A stretch of DNA of 64,000 bases from an uncultured Gemmatimonadales bacterium (GCA_963842945.1 CAWJIM010000023.1:96001-160000); one strand, 5' to 3'. Positions 38,486 through 46,345 are shown, counted from the stretch's first letter. Made by a program: numbers and translations. Notes: generated by a model not told the origin, from the sequence alone.

Positions 38486-40458
38486 CTAATTCACAGGCGG
38501 CAGATGAGACGCGACCACATAATCCCCTTTGCCGAACACATCCCCGCCTCCGACCGCGATCGCCACGAGTTGCTCACCCGAAGCCACGCGATAGCTCATC
38601 GGCGTGGCCTTGCCACTGGCCGGTAACGGTCCCCGCCAGAGCTCGCGCCCGGTCTCCAGATCGTAGGCATGGAGTGTCCGGTCCAGCGCCGCCCCGATGA
38701 ACACCAGGCCGCCCGCCGTGATGATCGGTCCGCCCAGGTTGGGCGAGCCCCAGCCGGCCGGAATTCGCGCAGCCTGGGCACTGTCGGCCAGGCCGAGCGG
38801 TAAGCCGAGCGGGACCTCCCAGAGTTGCTTCCCGGTCTTGAGGTCGATGGCCACCAGAGTGCCGAATGGCGGCGGGGTGCAGGGCACGCCTCCGGGACTG
38901 AGCAGGATCCGCCGCCGCATGACATAGGGCGTCCCCAGCATCTCGTTGTACTCGTACTTCCGCTTGAGCCGCATGTCCTCCGCCTTCGCGCCCGCCTCGT
39001 GGTAGCGCTCCCGCGGAATCAACTGCACCACCGCGGCGACCCGGTTCACTGGGACCACGGCGATCTGGCGCACCGGATCGACCGCGACACCGCCCCAGTG
39101 CGCCCCGCCGATGTTGGACGGCAGCACCAGCGTCCCTCGCACGCTCGGGGGAGTGAAGATCCCCTCGTTCCGGAGACTGTCGATCGCGGCATGGCAGGCG
39201 GCCCGCTCGGCGTCGTTCACTCCCCAGACTTGATCCAGCGTCAGACGGTGGGAGCTGAGCGGAGGCGTGAGCGCGGTGAACGGCTGGGTGGGAGACGCCC
39301 GCTCGCCCGGGATGTCGCTGGCCGGAACCGGTCGCTCTTCGCACCGGAAAGACCGGCTTCCCCGTCTCCCGGTCCAGCACGAAGAGCATCCCGGTCTTGC
39401 TGGCCTGGAGCACGACATCGCGCTGCTTGCCCTCGTAATTGAGTGACGTCAGGAGCGGCGGGCTGGCGTTGTCGTAGTCCCAGAGATCGTGGTGCACGGT
39501 CTGAAACGACCACACTACCTTCCCCGTCGAAGCCGTGAGGGCCGTGATGGAGTTGGCGTAGCGGTTGTCGCCCAACCGCATCGCGCCGTAGTAGTCCGGC
39601 GCCGGGCTCCCGGTCGGAATGAACACGAGGTCGCGCTCGGGATCGCCGGACAGCACCGACCAGGCGTTGGCGCCGCCGGTGTTTCGGCCCAGCTTCCCGC
39701 CCCAGGTGCCATAGGCCGAGTCGCCGGGCTGCTGAGGAATCGGATCCCAGCTCCAGCGGAGCGCACCGGTCCGGGCATCGTAGGCCCGCACCTCGCCGCT
39801 GGCCGGCGCGGGGCGGCTGTTGTCGTCGATGGACGACCCCGTGACGACCAGGCCGTTCATCACCAGCGGCGGCGAAGTCATGGTGTACGCCTGCTGCTCG
39901 AAGGGAGGAATCCGAAGCCCGCGCCTGAGATCGACCATGCCGCCGGAGCCGAACCCACTGCAGGGTTTGCCGGTGCGGCCATCCAGCGCCCAGAGCTGCG
40001 ATTGCGCATTGGCGATGAAGATCCGCCGCCGGCACGCCGCACCTTCCGCGGCCTTGTCATCGAGCCAGGCCGACACGCCCCGGCTGGCGAAGTCGCCGTA
40101 TCTCACGTCCCGTTTAATCTTGGGATCGAAGATCCAACGCTCCCGCCCAGTCGCGGCATCCAGCGCGATCACCCGCCCCAGCGGCGTTCCGATGTACATA
40201 ACCCCGTCGATCACCAACGGGGTGGTCTCGAACGAGGTCAGCTTTTTCGTGGCGAAGCGGGACTCGGTCTCGCCGGTGCGGTAGGTCCAGGCGACCTCGA
40301 GCCGGCTGACGTTGTCTCGGGTGATCTCATCCGCCGGTAAGATAGCGGGTTCCCTGGAGATCGCGACCGTACGCCGGCCAGTCGACCGCCTGGGCTGCCG
40401 CCGTCCCGGCGAGCATGGTGCCTGCGAAGGCCTGGAGCAAACATCCGCGCAGCATCAT
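38486..40458 (-). CDS. PQQ-dependent quinoprotein dehydrogenase (glucose dehydrogenase-like), frameshifted
   Basis: DWPAYGRD, FETTP, VHHDLWDYD, PCTPPPFG, GGPIITAGGLVF, ATPMSY. Confidence 0.9.
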
Positions 40459-40467
40459 CCGTCCTCG

Positions 40468-41298
40468 CTAGGGCGCGGACGCGTATTCGTCGTGCCGGCG
40501 GAACCAGATGTTGGTCTCGTTGCGCCCCTTGGGTGCCCGGTCGAGCCACTGGTACATCCCCCAGAGGGCGTCCAGTCCGCGCGCGAAGCTGGAGTAGGTG
40601 TGATAGACCGCGCCGTTCTCCAGCGCGAACGCGCTCATGCCCGGCCGCTCCCGGGTGTAGGTGGCCACGTCGGTGCCGGTCCTGGCCGCCATCCATTCGA
40701 CTGTCCCCTCACCCTCGTCCGACGTCCACTCCTGACCTTTCTTGCCCACCAGCGTATCCCGCATCGGCTGCTCGCGGCGGTAGTTGTATTCGATCTGACC
40801 CTCGAGCTGTTCCTGCTCGCTGAACCCCACGCTGAAGTCGTGGTTGAAGTCGCTGCCGAAGGAGGAGGCCCAGGGGAAGGTCCAGCCCATCCTCTTCTTG
40901 TAGGCGTCGAGCTTGGCGTATGGTGCCCGGGAGACGGCCCAGAGCATGACGTCGTGGTTGGCCAGGTGGACGGCGAAGCCGTTGAATCCGTCGGCGATGG
41001 CGGAGCAGGCGGGACAGCCGGCGGTGTAGTCCGGGCCGAACATGAAGTGATAGATCAGGATCTGGGAGCGGCCGCGGAAGAGGTCGGGGAGAGACGCGCT
41101 GCCCTCGGCGGTGTCGAAGCGGTACTGCTTGTCGATCGGGACCCAGGGCAGCTCCATCCGGCGGCGGGTCACCTCGTCGCCTTGACGAGTCAGCTCCTTT
41201 TCGGCCTCGAGCAGCTCCAGCCGGGCGGCCCGCCACTGCTCACGGGTTCCGGTTGGGTGGCTGATGGTGGTCTTCGGGTCTTTGGTGAGGTTGGCCAT
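40468..41298 (-). CDS. DUF899 thioredoxin-like protein
   Basis: YHFMFGP..GCPACS, VSRAP, SDFNHDF, YHTYS..RG, LDRAPKGRNE. Confidence 0.92.
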   Translation of the reverse strand: MANLTKDPKTTISHPTGTREQWRAARLELLEAEKELTRQGDEVTRRRMELPWVPIDKQYRFDTAEGSASLPDLFRGRSQILIYHFMFGPDYTAGCPACSAIADGFNGFAVHLANHDVMLWAVSRAPYAKLDAYKKRMGWTFPWASSFGSDFNHDFSVGFSEQEQLEGQIEYNYRREQPMRDTLVGKKGQEWTSDEGEGTVEWMAARTGTDVATYTRERPGMSAFALENGAVYHTYSSFARGLDALWGMYQWLDRAPKGRNETNIWFRRHDEYASAP

Positions 41299-41397
41299 GG
41301 TTTTTCTCCTGAGTGTCTGTCGCCAGTCGTGCGGGCTGGCGCTTGGCAACTGCCGACTGGCGGCTGCCTATTGTGTTCGGCCTGCGAGCTGACAACA

Positions 41398-41415
41398 TTC
41401 TACCGTATGGTTGAA
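41398..41415. promoter_or_regulatory. Probable ArsR operator overlapping its start codon
   Basis: Imperfect palindrome TTCTACCGTATGGTTGAA. Confidence 0.55.
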
Positions 41416-41805
41416 CGTTTGTCTACCCGGGCCCCGGAGCGGCGGCGGCTGGATCGGGTCTATGGGGCGATCGCGGATCCGACCCGCCGAGCCATGCTCG
41501 GGATCCTGGCGGGCGGCGAGGTCAATGTCGGAATGCTGGCCCAGCGGTTTCCCATCTCGTTCAACGGCGTCTCGAAGCACGTGAAGGTGCTGGAGCAGGC
41601 CGGCCTGGTGCGGCGGAGCGTGCGGGGGCGGGAGCACTGGCTCACGCTCCGCCCTGCCCCGCTCCGGGACGCGAGCCGCTGGCTGGAGCACTACCGGGAG
41701 TTCTGGGAGAACCGGCTCGAGGCGCTGGAGGACTTTCTGCTGCAGCAGAAGGACGATCCCAATGTCAAAGGCCGGCGGGGCCGCGGCAGGACGGGAAAAG
41801 GATGA
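41407..41805 (+). CDS. ArsR-family regulator
   Basis: AIADPTRRAML..VSKHVKVLEQAGLV..GREH. Confidence 0.9.
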   Translation: MVERLSTRAPERRRLDRVYGAIADPTRRAMLGILAGGEVNVGMLAQRFPISFNGVSKHVKVLEQAGLVRRSVRGREHWLTLRPAPLRDASRWLEHYREFWENRLEALEDFLLQQKDDPNVKGRRGRGRTGKG

Positions 41806-42227
41806 GCGGCAGCGAATCGGGCGAGACCCTGGTGGTGCGGCGGTTCATCCCGGCGCCGAGGGAGCGGGTGTTTGCCGCCTGGCTGGATCCGGCAAGTCTG
41901 GCGCAGTGGATGCGGCCGGGAGGGATGACCGATGCCACGGCGGAGGTCGATCCTAAGGTCGGTGGCAAGTTCCGGATCGTTATGATCGAGGGGCCGAAGC
42001 AGTACGAGCACACGGGAGAGTATCTCGCGATCGAGCCGGCGGAGCGGCTCGAGTTCACCTGGATCTCCGAGGCCACCGATCACCGGCCGACGGTGGTCAC
42101 GATCGAGTTTCTGGAGCGGGATGGGGGGACGGAACTCGTCCTGACCCACCGGCGGCTGCCGCCCAAGCAGGTGGGGTCGCATCGCAGGGGTTGGACCGAG
42201 GTCCTCCAGCTCCTGGACCAAGGATAG
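41802..42227 (+). CDS. SRPBCC/AHSA1 protein
   Basis: APRERVFAAW, DPKVGGKF, LEFTW, HRRGW. Confidence 0.9.
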   Translation: MSGSESGETLVVRRFIPAPRERVFAAWLDPASLAQWMRPGGMTDATAEVDPKVGGKFRIVMIEGPKQYEHTGEYLAIEPAERLEFTWISEATDHRPTVVTIEFLERDGGTELVLTHRRLPPKQVGSHRRGWTEVLQLLDQG

Positions 42228-42412
42228 AAAGACGCGTCACGGCAGCACCGAACGCAGACCCAGGTTGATCATGCTGCCCTCCAACAGTGCCCAAGCGTCA
42301 AGTGTCCACCGTCCGCCCGGACCAGGCTCCGGCCGAACCAGCGGCTGGCCTTGTGAGCTCTGGAACTGGACCGTACCTTCGAGAAACGTGCAGCCTTCCT
42401 CGAGGAGGCATC

Positions 42413-43527
42413 ATGCAACGTACTCTGCCTGCCCTGCCCCTACTGCTCTCCCGGGGCGCCTTAACGATCTTCTTCCTCGGCTTCTTCACCCGGGCGGCCG
42501 CCGGCCAGGGGTGAATGCCGTTCCGAACGGCATCCAGTGTGGGTGTCCAGGGGAACTCTGTCTTACACGCGCATCACTGGGAGTTCGGCGCTTCCTATCG
42601 GTACCTCCGTGCCCACGGCCAGGACTTTTTCGTCGGCACTCAACGGACCCCGCCACCACCCGCAACTCAGCCACCCGGTGGTCAGCCCATCGAGGTCGAT
42701 GTGCACACCATTGGCCTCAGCCTGACGTATGCGCTGACAGATCAAGTGCGTTTCATCGTGGCCGCGCCGATACAGATCGGTCAAGTGTCGTTCATCCAAG
42801 AGGATCATCTCAGACACGCTGAGAACACGACCGGATTGGGCGATGTCACCCTGGCAGGGAATGCGTGGCTCTTCAACCCGCGCGAACATGCCACCGGGAA
42901 TCTGATGCTCGGTTTGGGAGTAAAGCTTCCGACCGGTAGCTATAGTGATAGCGTGACGTTCTATACTCCGACCGGAACGGTCCCGCGCCCAGCCGACCCA
43001 TCCATACAAACGGGAGACGGTGGAGTGGGTATCCTAACGCAGCTGGAGGCATTCCATCAGCTGGCCGGCGGAGCCCTGGTGTATCTCTCTGGCTTTTATC
43101 TTTTCAATCCCAGAGTGCAGACCGAGATTACCATCGGGAACCGTCTAGGGTTGCCGGGTAACTCGGCTGCTGGCACGGTGCCCTACCATTTGTCGGTGCC
43201 TGACGCCTTACAGTCTGCGTAGCGGTGTGAGCTTTGCCGTACTACCCAGTCAAGGTCTTTCCCTGAGTGTTGGTGGGCGTATCGATGGCGTGCCGGTGCA
43301 GGACCTTGTCAACGGCGGCGATGATGACTTCCGCCGGCCAGGCTATGGGGCGTTCCTCGACCTTGGGGCCGATCTGAGCCGAGGATCCAATACCTTTACC
43401 CTGAATGTTCCCATCCGAGCATACGCAGATCGGAGAGCCAATCTCTACGACCGACAGGTTGAATATCGCCGGAGGCGGTAACCTGGCCAAGTTCCAAATT
43501 TTCGCGAGCTACACCCATCGATTCTAA
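42413..43527 (+). CDS. Outer-membrane beta-barrel 'transporter'-like protein with in-frame TGA at codon 34 (candidate selenoprotein); two indels near 43208 and 43457
   Basis: GAGGAGG RBS, signal peptide ending AAAG|QG, TGA at 42512, same frame continues; GLGDV, GVKLPTG, FRRPGY; ends YTHRF. Confidence 0.75.
42520..42556 (+). promoter_or_regulatory. Candidate bacterial SECIS element
   Basis: Upper stem GGCAUCCA/UGGGUGUC, loop GUG with G at +23 and U at +24 from UGA; lower stem GUUCC/GGAAC. Confidence 0.6.
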
Positions 43528-43977: not shown

Positions 43978-46345
43978 ATGGCCGACCCGCTTGCTCTCCT
44001 GAAACTTCCCCTTGCCGATCGCTACCTGATCGAGCGGGAGATCGGCCGCGGCGGCATGGCGACCGTCTACCTCGCCCAGGACCTCAAGCACCACCGCCAC
44101 GTCGCCCTCAAGGTCCTGCGGCCCGAAGTCGCCGGCGCGCTCGGCGGCGAGCGGTTTCTGCGCGAGATCGAGCTCGCCGCCCGCCTGCAGCATCCCCATA
44201 TCCTCGCCTGCTCGATTCCGGCACCGCGGGCGATGTGCTGTACTACGTGATGCCCTACGTCGAGGGCGAATCCCTCCGCGATCGGCTGGACCGGGAGAAG
44301 CAGCTCCCGGTCGACGCCGCGATCCGGATTGCCCGGGAAGTAGCAGGGGCGCTGGACTACGCCCACCGCCACGGCGTCGTCCATCGCGACATCAAGCCCG
44401 AGAACATCCTGCTCTCCGGAGGCAGGCGCTGGTGGCGGACTTCGGCATCGCCAAGGCGCTCGACGCGGCCGGCGGGCGAGAAGCTGACCGAGACCGGCCT
44501 CGCGCTCGGCACGCCGCACTACATGAGCCCGGAGCAGGCCTCGGCGACCCGCTCCCTGGATGGCCGCAGCGACATCTATGCGCTGGGCTGCGTGCTGTAC
44601 GAGATGCTGGCGGGCGAGCCCCCGTTCACGGGGCCCAGCGCGCAATCGGTCCTGGCCCGCCATGCGGTCGACCCGGTGCCGAGCCTCCACACGGTGCGGG
44701 GGACGGTGCCGGCCGGGATCGAATGGGCCATCGGCAAGGCGATGGCCAAGGTGCCCGCCGATCGCTTTGCATCTGCGGCGGAGTTCGCCGACGCGCTGGC
44801 GCATCCCGAACGCGCGCCAGCCCGGAGAACCAGGGATCGCCGACTCCTGTACCTCGGGGTGGCCGTGGCCGCGCTGGCCCTGGTGTTCGCGCTCGCTGGA
44901 CGCCGCATCTTCGACGGAGCAAAGGGCGCTGTGCCCCACGTACGATCTCTCGCGGTCCTGCCGCTGGAAACCGTCTCCGGCGACTCAGCGTTGGGCGACG
45001 CCATGACGGAAGCCCTGACCACTGATCTTGGCCGGATCAGCGCGCTCCGGGTTACGGCCAGGCGGGCGACGCTGCTGTACAAGGCCAGCACGTTGCCCGC
45101 CCCGCAGATCGCGCGGGACCTGGGGGTAGATGGGGTGCTCGAGGGTGGCCTGCAGCGCTCGGGGGACAATCTGCGGCTAGACCTTCGCCTCGTGAGCGCC
45201 GCTTCGGGGCGGCGGCTCTGGGCTCAACGATTTAACGAGCGATTCAGCAATCGCTCCTCCATTGGCGATGCCGTCTCACAGAGTCTAGTGTCGGCCCTCA
45301 AGCTGGCGGTGACGTCTTCGGAGGAGCGCCAGTTGCACGCCCCGCCGACGACCAATGCCGAGGCCTACGACAGCTTCCTGCGGGGCAAGATCCACCTCTT
45401 GCCCATGAACCGGAGGGACGATTCGATCGCGACTGTTGCCTTGGAGCACGCGGTGGCGCTGGACCCCAACTTCGCCGCGGCCTACGCGGAGCTGGCGTAC
45501 GCGTACGGTCTCTGGGTCTTCCTGTTTGAGCCTCTCGACAGCGCGACCCAGGAGAAGGGCCTGGTGACGGTGGAGAAAGCGCTACGTCTGGACCCCGATC
45601 TTGCAGAGGCCCACTTCGCGCGCGCCTTCCTGCTGTGCACGCCTGCCAACAATTTCGCGTATGAACTGGGGGTCCGGGAGTTCCGTCGCGCGATCGCGCT
45701 GAACCCGAACCAGGCGGAGGCACACCGCTGGCTCGGGATAGAGTACTTTCATATCGGCATGTTCGAGAAAGCCATCGAGCAGTTCCGGGAGACCGAGACG
45801 ATCGATCCCGGCAACCGTCATGCACAGCTTTGGCTCGGTGTCGTGCTGACCTACCAGGGACGCTATGAGGAGGGATTGCGGACTATCCGCGAGGTGCCGC
45901 GTGAGTGGAATCCTGCGATATGGACCTATCATGTCGCATGGGACCTTCTGTACCTTGGCCGAAGCGAGGAAGCCTCGACCGTCATTGAGGACTACCTGAA
46001 GACCGCACCCCGGGACCCAGGTGGACTGGTCACCGGGGTCCGCGCGATCCTCCATGCGAAGAAGGGCGATGCGCGGAGAACAGAGGAGGATATCCGGAAG
46101 GCAGTAGCGCTGGGGCAGGGATACGGGCACTTTCACCACACCGCCTACAACATCGCATCGGCCTATGCACTCTACACCGGCCAGCGCTCGCGGTGCAGTG
46201 GCTGCGCCGGGCGTCCGACAATGGGGTCCCGTGCTATCCTCTCTTCGAAAACGACCCAAATCTGGCCAATCTGCATCAGGACCCGGGGTATCTCGCGCTC
46301 ATGGCGGAGCTGAAGGCCCAGTGGGAGCGGTGGAAAGATTTGTGA
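43978..46345 (+). CDS. Ser/Thr kinase - TM - TolB_N-like - TPR protein 1 (several frameshifts)
   Basis: [38 protein letters not shown] repeats. Confidence 0.9.

Follow-up and report, generated by a model that had tools for sequence, protein, structure and literature searches.

A predicted selenocysteine codon in a family of exported outer-membrane barrels from soil bacteria

The DNA of an uncultured Gemmatimonadales bacterium (GCA_963842945.1, CAWJIM010000023.1:96001-160000), a stretch of 64,000 nucleotides referred to here as the window, carries at positions 42413-43527 a gene for an outer-membrane barrel in which an in-frame UGA (42512-42514) directly follows the signal peptide. Our analysis supports the reading that this is a selenoprotein gene, in which the UGA would encode selenocysteine (Sec), the product would be an exported barrel, and two frameshifts in the assembled copy would be assembly errors; on comparative sequence evidence, we put the probability of this whole explanation at roughly 0.87. 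By the standard logic of cysteine (Cys)/Sec homology, the TGA is almost certainly a genuine Sec codon of a new selenoprotein family. A preliminary description, made from the window alone, had proposed that an exported outer-membrane barrel carries a Sec codon where its homologues have Cys, and all the proposed tests that were run supported this core reading.

A column shared by UGA and Cys codons

A search for related proteins, in which X stood for the TGA, gave 238 matches, the closest being 53-70% identical to the window protein and nearly all 333-345 amino acids (aa) long, along with a partial match (P0029) that was 95% identical. The close matches covered at most 86% of the query, corresponding to the portion after the TGA. 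Eight of nine close proteins begin MP[F/V/L]R..., the ninth starts at a Met further in, and none of the nine has a signal peptide, which is the manner in which gene callers truncate selenoprotein genes. Since the TGA forms stand in public databases as 'hypothetical proteins' cut short at the N-terminus and lacking a signal peptide, both their location and their function are mis-predicted. Six distant homologues (35-39% identical) instead possess a signal peptide followed by [A/G/P]QG-C, with the Cys aligned exactly one column ahead of the Met that follows the TGA in the window. The AQGC start of related barrels, which the preliminary description had mentioned, was thus confirmed in homologue sequences as well as in DNA.

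Among 41 genomes of the genus and order, four matches were found in three genomes, each with exactly one in-frame TGA that in every case (4/4) came after the ...GQG ending a signal peptide. The genome of the window itself carries an intact paralogue (L026; G000:C24:400091-400807) that is 44% identical to the window copy, with an ATG at 1498, the TGA at 1600, a last codon ending at 2565, and a signal peptide ...SGQG followed by TGA and then MPVRFTSPSLGG. A wider genome scan, taking one genome per species, yielded 79 loci, all of which showed [Q/H]G after a signal peptide and then TGA (25), TGC (33), or TGT (21). The 80 metagenome loci contributed 56 TGA, 13 TGC, 5 TGT, and 1 TGG, with 5 loci ending before the N-terminus. 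Accordingly, TGA, TGC, or TGT occupied the column in 74/75 N-terminally complete metagenome loci and in 153/154 loci overall, so that the tabulation of codons suggested in the preliminary description revealed alternation between TGA and Cys codons. The scans together with the window, L024, and L026 gave 84 TGA loci, which include some metagenome duplicates and correspond to 77 distinct downstream sequences. One TGA locus, L095, whose genome is flagged as unpublished, was included in the codon, z-score, hairpin, loop-GU, and selA counts, and the 144-member alignment, the tree, the model, and the clustering of neighboring genes were made without it.

The motif preceding the Cys/Sec position was [A/G/S]QG, with AQG in 94, GQG in 40, and SQG in 18 of 156 loci and AHG in two loci. 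Of the 153 loci in which 25 or more residues precede the Cys/Sec, 148 had a best upstream stretch of 10 residues made up wholly of hydrophobic or small residues (AILMFVWGCST). The Cys/Sec column was invariant in 144/144 aligned sequences, and in the QG-[C/U]-xxx-R start, the G and the C/U were invariant while the Q and the R were each at least 90% conserved. Intact frames of 300-400 codons without a further stop followed the column in 75 distinct TGA forms and 71 Cys forms, indicating that the TGA forms, being otherwise intact, are not pseudogenes. According to the labels of their metagenome-assembled genomes (MAGs), the TGA forms belong to Gemmatimonadota, Verrucomicrobiota, Acidobacteriota, Planctomycetota, and Armatimonadota. 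On a family tree of the 144 members, built after removal of the Cys/Sec column, at least 8 switches between Sec and Cys were required, at least 5 of them forced by well-supported branches, compared with approximately 48 for shuffled labels. On this comparative evidence, the UGA is shown to occupy a conserved coding column in which Cys is the alternative, and conservation of the TGA/Cys column excludes a nonsense lesion.

The TGA was also recovered independently of the assembly, as the preliminary description had advised checking. Positions 42512-42514 were unchanged in contigs from three soil DNA runs belonging to three separate studies (X1, X2, and X5; Table 1). The run contigs, from four runs, span only 42303-42785, with a sampled-word share of at most 0.19 in any run, and where aligned they differ from the window solely at 42438, 42539, 42652, 42703, and 42745. 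A substitution error of sequencing or assembly might be suspected in an error-prone, long-read-like assembly, but the agreement of the three contigs at 42512-42514, together with the same TGA in about 80 other loci, makes such an error a negligible prospect. A rhizosphere metatranscriptome contig (X10, 42509-42666) matches the window without differences, which hints at expression, although it is no proof of transcription, as RNA libraries can hold DNA.

The stem-loop after the UGA and the Sec machinery

Downstream of the UGA, the window can form a lower stem (42520-42524 with 42552-42556) and an upper stem (42529-42535 with 42541-42547) around the loop AGUGU at 42536-42540 (G42537, U42538), and the two stems together constitute the minimum-free-energy fold of 42512-42560, at -17.4 kcal/mol. 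The conserved part is the upper hairpin, 17-35 nt downstream of the UGA. In a nearly gap-free alignment of the 77 distinct sequences (UGA plus 51 nt), we tested a 7-bp helix formed by columns 21-27 with 33-39 around a 5-nt loop. Standard pairs occupied 82.9% of helix cells compared with 70.2% after shuffling, and the covariation score of the helix was 0.345 compared with 0.151, values that 0/500 shuffles reached in either case; sliding the 3' arm by 1-3 columns left at most 56% of cells paired. Pair 24-36, in which both members are third-codon positions, appeared as GC (32), AU (13), CG (13), GU (5), UA (2), and UG (1), and pair 22-38 as UG (19), GC (17), AU (6), GU (6), and CG (3). Because such covariation involves synonymous positions, protein constraint hardly explains the pairing, and the comparative evidence shows the hairpin to be under selection. 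Fold z-scores over positions 13-48 averaged -1.39 in Sec forms (n=78) and 0.06 in Cys forms (n=72), a difference whose P value of 5e-16 overstates the case because the sequences are related. The energy of the whole segment (63 nt after the codon; TGA -19.2, TGC -22.2, TGT -16.1 kcal/mol) did not separate Sec from Cys forms and was set aside in favor of the shuffle z-scores.

The preliminary description had called for a selenocysteine insertion sequence (SECIS) hairpin just 3' of the UGA. A conserved hairpin does exist, at 42529-42547, whereas one starting immediately after the UGA does not hold up: the candidate at 42515-42533 (-9.7 kcal/mol) occurs in the window but is not kept by the other aligned sequences. 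Like that of Escherichia coli fdhF (NC_000913.3), the stem-loop lies in the coding region after the UGA and presents a G and a U in its apical loop. The loop GU was present in 77/77 sequences, with the G at 26 (6 sequences), 28 (10), 29 (60), or 30 nt (1), counting the U of UGA as 1. The claim that the SelB-contacted bases occur at the same offsets was incorrect, given that the GU lies at 23-24 in fdhF and at 26-27 in the window, one codon away, and at 28-30 in 71/77 family sequences; some family members further differ from fdhF by a bulge on the 3' side, as judged by eye from the alignment. At 42539, contigs X1 and X5 carry T in place of G, which changes the loop from AGUGU to the family consensus AGUUU and a Val to the consensus Leu; the occurrence of this variant in two independent soil runs indicates that close strains differ in the hairpin loop. 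In a Cys clade with the start QGC-EPIRF (L110, L139, L146, and relatives), nested within the Sec clade, the hairpin still folds at -9 to -16 kcal/mol, possibly as a fossil SECIS left after a switch from Sec to Cys.

The absence of sel genes from the window, stated in the preliminary description, was correct, and the search of the remaining genome that it suggested recovered selA, selB, selD, and tRNA-Sec. The selA match (286.9 bits) falls into three frame pieces, and the selB match (235 bits, positions 1-211, plus further pieces) is partial and just under the 242-bit cut-off; selD (366 bits) itself has an in-frame TGA, read as Sec at the canonical site ...SHGAGUACK. Two tRNA-SeC genes with the anticodon tca are present (L015, G000:C15:14378-14471; L016, G000:C1:150251-150344) at equal positions within their loci, and similar GTPase matches to the selB model lie about 9.3 kb from the tRNA-SeC on both contigs. 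These doubled loci may reflect a duplication or a co-assembled strain, contamination being given as 6%. Across the family, selA exceeded its cut-off in 24/25 genomes with the TGA form and in 8/25 genomes with the Cys form, the latter tally covering 25 of the 54 Cys-form genomes.

From the established bacterial mechanism, the following sequence of events can be proposed. A ribosome would meet the UGA at 42512, SelB bearing Sec-tRNA(Sec) would be recruited by the stem-loop at 42529-42547, and Sec would be put in at the UGA in place of termination. The product would then be exported through the Sec translocon by its N-terminal signal peptide, cleaved near the conserved QG-U, and folded in the outer membrane as a COG4313/FapF-type barrel with 12 strands. 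By analogy with solved relatives, and with the N-terminus of the model being of low confidence, Sec would sit on the plug, at the periplasmic opening of the channel.

Competing readings of the UGA and the frameshifts

Two alternatives would place something other than Sec at the UGA. The TGA could be the true stop of a 33-codon upstream open reading frame (ORF), with the barrel translated separately from the next ATG by UGAAUG coupling, and indeed the codon after the TGA is ATG in 39/84 and GTG in 17/84 TGA loci, while gene callers annotate the proteins as starting there. However, 28/84 loci have a codon other than ATG, GTG, or TTG after the TGA (CCC, CCG, GCN, ATC, ATT, GTC, GTA, GTT), and what would be the upstream 'ORF' is the signal peptide, contiguous with the barrel in the Cys homologues, observations that exclude a separate downstream gene. 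A barrel without a signal peptide is unable to reach the outer membrane, and the QG ahead of the TGA is kept across phyla, leaving this reading scarcely credible. Decoding of the UGA by other means, through a near-cognate tRNA-Trp or tRNA-Cys or a lineage-specific code change, could draw on the TGG found at the column in L147 and on the single TGA-bearing genome without detectable selA. Against it stand the alternation of TGA with TGC/TGT, not TGG, in 153/154 loci, the presence of selA in nearly all TGA-form genomes, the conserved SelB-type hairpin with its loop GU, the use of TGA as a gene terminator in these same lineages (in the L027 orthologue), and the UGA read as Sec in the SelD of the window's own genome; we regard such decoding as very unlikely.

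A further alternative accepts an ancestral Sec codon but takes the window copy for a decaying pseudogene with real frameshifts, whose job is done by the intact, TGA-bearing paralogue in the same genome. Relative to the orthologues L027, L106, and L109, two TT pairs in the window (43208-43209 and 43459-43460) each include one additional T, so that the gene as assembled combines the TGA with two frameshifts. In the same assembly, however, the essential EF-Tu gene is frameshifted in each of its two copies (2 and 5 pieces, with 1 and 4 breaks in about 1.2 kb each), and selA and selB are broken as well (Table 1). Two indels in 1.1 kb therefore match the background error rate, which looks like uncorrected long-read indel error, and beyond the indels, the window copy is free of further stops, with its conserved motifs retained. 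The frameshifts of the window copy are thus most likely assembly errors, and decay is an unlikely, though the least remote, alternative to a functional selenoprotein gene. Every 'pseudogene' in the window should likewise be judged against the indel error of this assembly.

Several observations weigh against the selenoprotein reading. The two 1-nt insertions relative to orthologues are as decay would have them, and the run contigs do not reach either frameshift site. Sec in the protein is itself predicted from comparative evidence, and both the P values and the selA contrast (24/25 versus 8/25) overstate independence because the sequences are related; selA was not found in 1/25 TGA-bearing genomes (G058). 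The energy of the hairpin is modest, with z below -2 in only 21% of Sec forms, and the minimum-free-energy fold of the paralogue L026 is one other than the family hairpin (z -0.05). A scan of 42350-42750 against Rfam matched no SECIS family, returning only a chance small-RNA match (E 6.7). The sole family exception at the column, the metagenome locus L147 with ...AVAQG-W-APIRF, could represent a TGA-to-TGG change or a sequencing error. Residues 1-20 of the structural model described below have a predicted local distance difference test (pLDDT) score of 46-56, too low to place Sec relative to the lumen, and an adjacent TlpA-like gene, considered below as a clue to function, is lacking at both barrel loci of this genome and at most loci elsewhere.

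Direct reading and translation bore out the ribosome-binding site, ATG, signal peptide, and TGA given in the preliminary description (Table 1). Its statement that the same frame continues into a barrel ending in Phe required correction: frame 1 remains open for 235 codons past the TGA and is closed by the TAG at 43220-43222, and the rest of the barrel lies in frame 2 and then frame 3. The resulting C-terminus, ...FASYTHRF, agrees with the ...Y(T/S)xRF common to the homologues.

Table 1. Coordinates of the barrel gene, of contigs spanning its UGA, and of split genes in the assembly (window positions unless a contig is named)
Feature	Position	Strand	Basis or remark
Shine-Dalgarno-like GAGGAGG	42402-42408	+	Ends 4 nt before ATG 42413; direct reading
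Start codon and 33-codon signal peptide MQRTLPALPLLLSRGALTIFFLGFFTRAAAGQG, ending ...TRAAAGQG	42413-42511	+	Translation
UGA, read as selenocysteine (predicted)	42512-42514	+	Column invariant Cys in homologues
SECIS-like stem-loop	42520-42556	+	Minimum-free-energy fold and alignment covariation
Barrel part 1, frame 1, MPFRTASSVGVQG... to ...VPDA	42515-43207	+	53-70% identity to database proteins
Frameshift 1, one T too many in TT	43208-43209	+	Makes TAG 43220-43222; orthologue alignment
Barrel middle, frame 2, YSLRSGVSFAVLPSQGLS...ANLYDRQV	43210-43458	+	Agrees with orthologue sequence
Frameshift 2, one T too many in TT	43459-43460	+	Orthologue alignment
Barrel C-terminus, frame 3, NIAGGGNLAKFQIFASYTHRF, then TAA 43525-43527	43461-43527	+	Homologue C-terminal motif
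Contig X1	42328-42625		
Contig X2	42368-42525		
Contig X5	42303-42577		
EF-Tu, split	G000:C23:40411-41602		
EF-Tu, split	G000:C23:17131-18325		
selA, split	G000:C2:138515-139839		
selB, split	G000:C2:8832-10665		

Directly upstream of the barrel gene, the region 40312-42224 (+) encodes an AHSA1/SRPBCC protein (141 aa) and a regulator domain of the ArsR/HTH_20 type, the latter at residues 387-434 within an over-long ORF (497 codons); a regulator that responds to metals or metalloids beside the barrel gene may bear on the function of the barrel. Downstream lies a Ser/Thr protein kinase with TPR repeats in two overlapping frames (43978-44247 and 44235-46310, +), and a pyrroloquinoline quinone (PQQ)-dependent dehydrogenase at 38574-40214 (-) matches its Pfam profile only from position 55 onward. 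The split kinase and the partial dehydrogenase match are probably further indel artefacts.

Barrel fold, possible role, and relation to known proteins

The Pfam model PF13557 (Phenol_MetA_deg) scored 20 bits with the window piece and 20.8 bits with the orthologue L027, below its cut-off of 22; it matched 33/144 members at E <= 0.01 (best 3.3e-8), most members falling below the Pfam cut-off. NCBIfam (June 2026) returned no family for the 5 members searched. An AlphaFold2 model of L027, based on 144 aligned sequences, formed a 12-stranded barrel (pLDDT 87.3; predicted template-modelling score, pTM, 0.87). The best Foldseek match was FapF (5O67; E 3e-15, template-modelling (TM) scores 0.63/0.72), followed by the COG4313 protein Pput2725 (4RL8; E 1e-10, TM 0.61/0.76). 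The modelled fold thus groups the protein with the COG4313/FapF type of outer-membrane barrels, which have 12 strands. In FapF, the N-terminal region plugs the barrel, and we know of no Cys/Sec motif in it.

The exact position of Sec in the mature protein depends on where the signal peptide would be cleaved. Signal peptidase favors small residues at -3 and -1; cleavage as A-Q-G|U would fit this rule and make Sec mature residue 1, whereas cleavage as AAG|QGU, assumed in the preliminary description, would put it at mature residue 3. A lipoprotein reading of QG-C was also considered and rejected. The lipobox has the consensus L-[A/S]-[G/A]-C, and the hydrophobic region leading to its Cys is free of charges, while in this family position -2 is Q, position -3 is A/G/S, and Pro-Arg/Lys usually occurs 6-8 residues before the Cys. 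In Pput2725, an N-terminal segment precedes strand 1 and occludes the lumen (PMC4493636), and by analogy the QG-U-xxx-R start may lie on such a plug segment.

Clues to the role of the residue come from Cys counts and neighboring genes. No other Cys is present in 63/74 Sec forms, and only 4 have one within 20 residues, whereas in 41/70 Cys forms another Cys lies within 20 residues. A TlpA-like thioredoxin (NFWA[S/T]WCxPC) directly adjoins the barrel gene on the same strand in approximately 19/156 loci, 15 of them Sec forms; loci with such TlpA/ResA-like neighbors include L111, L112, L114, L115, L152, L154, L166, L170, L024, L030, L099, and L102. The TlpA-like homologues of the window's genome, at C23:473 kb and C2:316 kb, are not next to a barrel gene and were discarded. 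The Cys counts and neighbors are circumstantial but fit a redox-cycled nucleophile. The most likely role, which we hold to be somewhat short of an even chance, would be that of a lone redox-active nucleophile or soft-ligand site that controls or senses passage through the channel and that thioredoxin-like proteins of the periplasm keep in the reduced state. The soft-metal ligand or redox gate of the preliminary description was an inference, and the thioredoxin-like neighbor is the sole new support for it. More speculative, and in our estimate unlikely, is a version in which cleavage after QG would make Sec the first mature residue on the plug, forming a redox-switchable or metal/metalloid gate reset by a dedicated TlpA-like thioredoxin; if true, no selenium-gated membrane channel would precede it, and it would be widespread among aerobic phyla of soil that are not deemed rich in selenoproteins.

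Other neighbors recur around the family. In 23/156 loci, 16 of them Cys forms, a gene within 1.5 kb encodes a protein of some 500 aa that combines DUF6851 with the second helical bundle domain of vanadium chloroperoxidase (loci including L046, L048, L067, L082, L091, L096, L097, L104, L135, and L140; mostly from MAGs and isolates with Bacteroidota or Verrucomicrobiota labels). The largest neighbor cluster, a Ser/Thr kinase with TPR (50 loci, members of at least 300 aa), kept no consistent side or strand and was dropped, and several other clusters proved to be antisense shadow ORFs and were not used as evidence. Neighbor clustering and a Pfam scan of representatives showed no Fap genes by the barrel loci, although no Fap-directed search was made.

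The 2026 review of the prokaryotic selenoproteome counts 119 families and subfamilies (PMC13188914, Table 1). A COG4313/PF13557-type barrel is absent from that table, although supplementary tables of the deep-Sep and groundwater-MAG papers could list it. A full-text search combining 'MetA-pathway of phenol degradation' with 'selenocysteine' gave no match, and literature naming COG4313 included nothing on selenium in the titles and abstract beginnings of the matches listed. Missing from this inventory and without an NCBIfam model, the family would be an addition to it, and its five-phylum spread by MAG labels would widen the use of Sec among soil bacteria. A single Sec at, or at most 3 residues from, the predicted mature N-terminus of a passive outer-membrane channel would be unlike the usual thioredoxin-fold redox enzymes.

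Among known systems, the family resembles the COG4313/PF13557 channels (Pput2725 of Pseudomonas putida, TcpY, and SphA) in its predicted 12-stranded barrel, signal peptide, and C-terminal aromatic residue. It differs from Pput2725 in its invariant QG-[C/U]-xxx-R start, which does not figure among the features described in the abstract and introduction of PMC4493636. With FapF (5O65, 5O67), its best structural match, it would share the 12-stranded barrel, but sequence identity is only 13-15%. Other outer-membrane selenoproteins have been predicted, namely, the GSU2204-family MtrB/PioB-like barrel (NF041027) and a TonB-dependent receptor with an FCYXU motif (NF049945), as given in PMC13188914 (Table 1) and PMC12013277. 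Like the family described here, both are outer-membrane beta-barrels whose Sec was predicted by Cys/Sec homology; however, they belong to unrelated barrel families, and their Sec is not at the mature N-terminus, that of the receptor lying in a CxxU motif.

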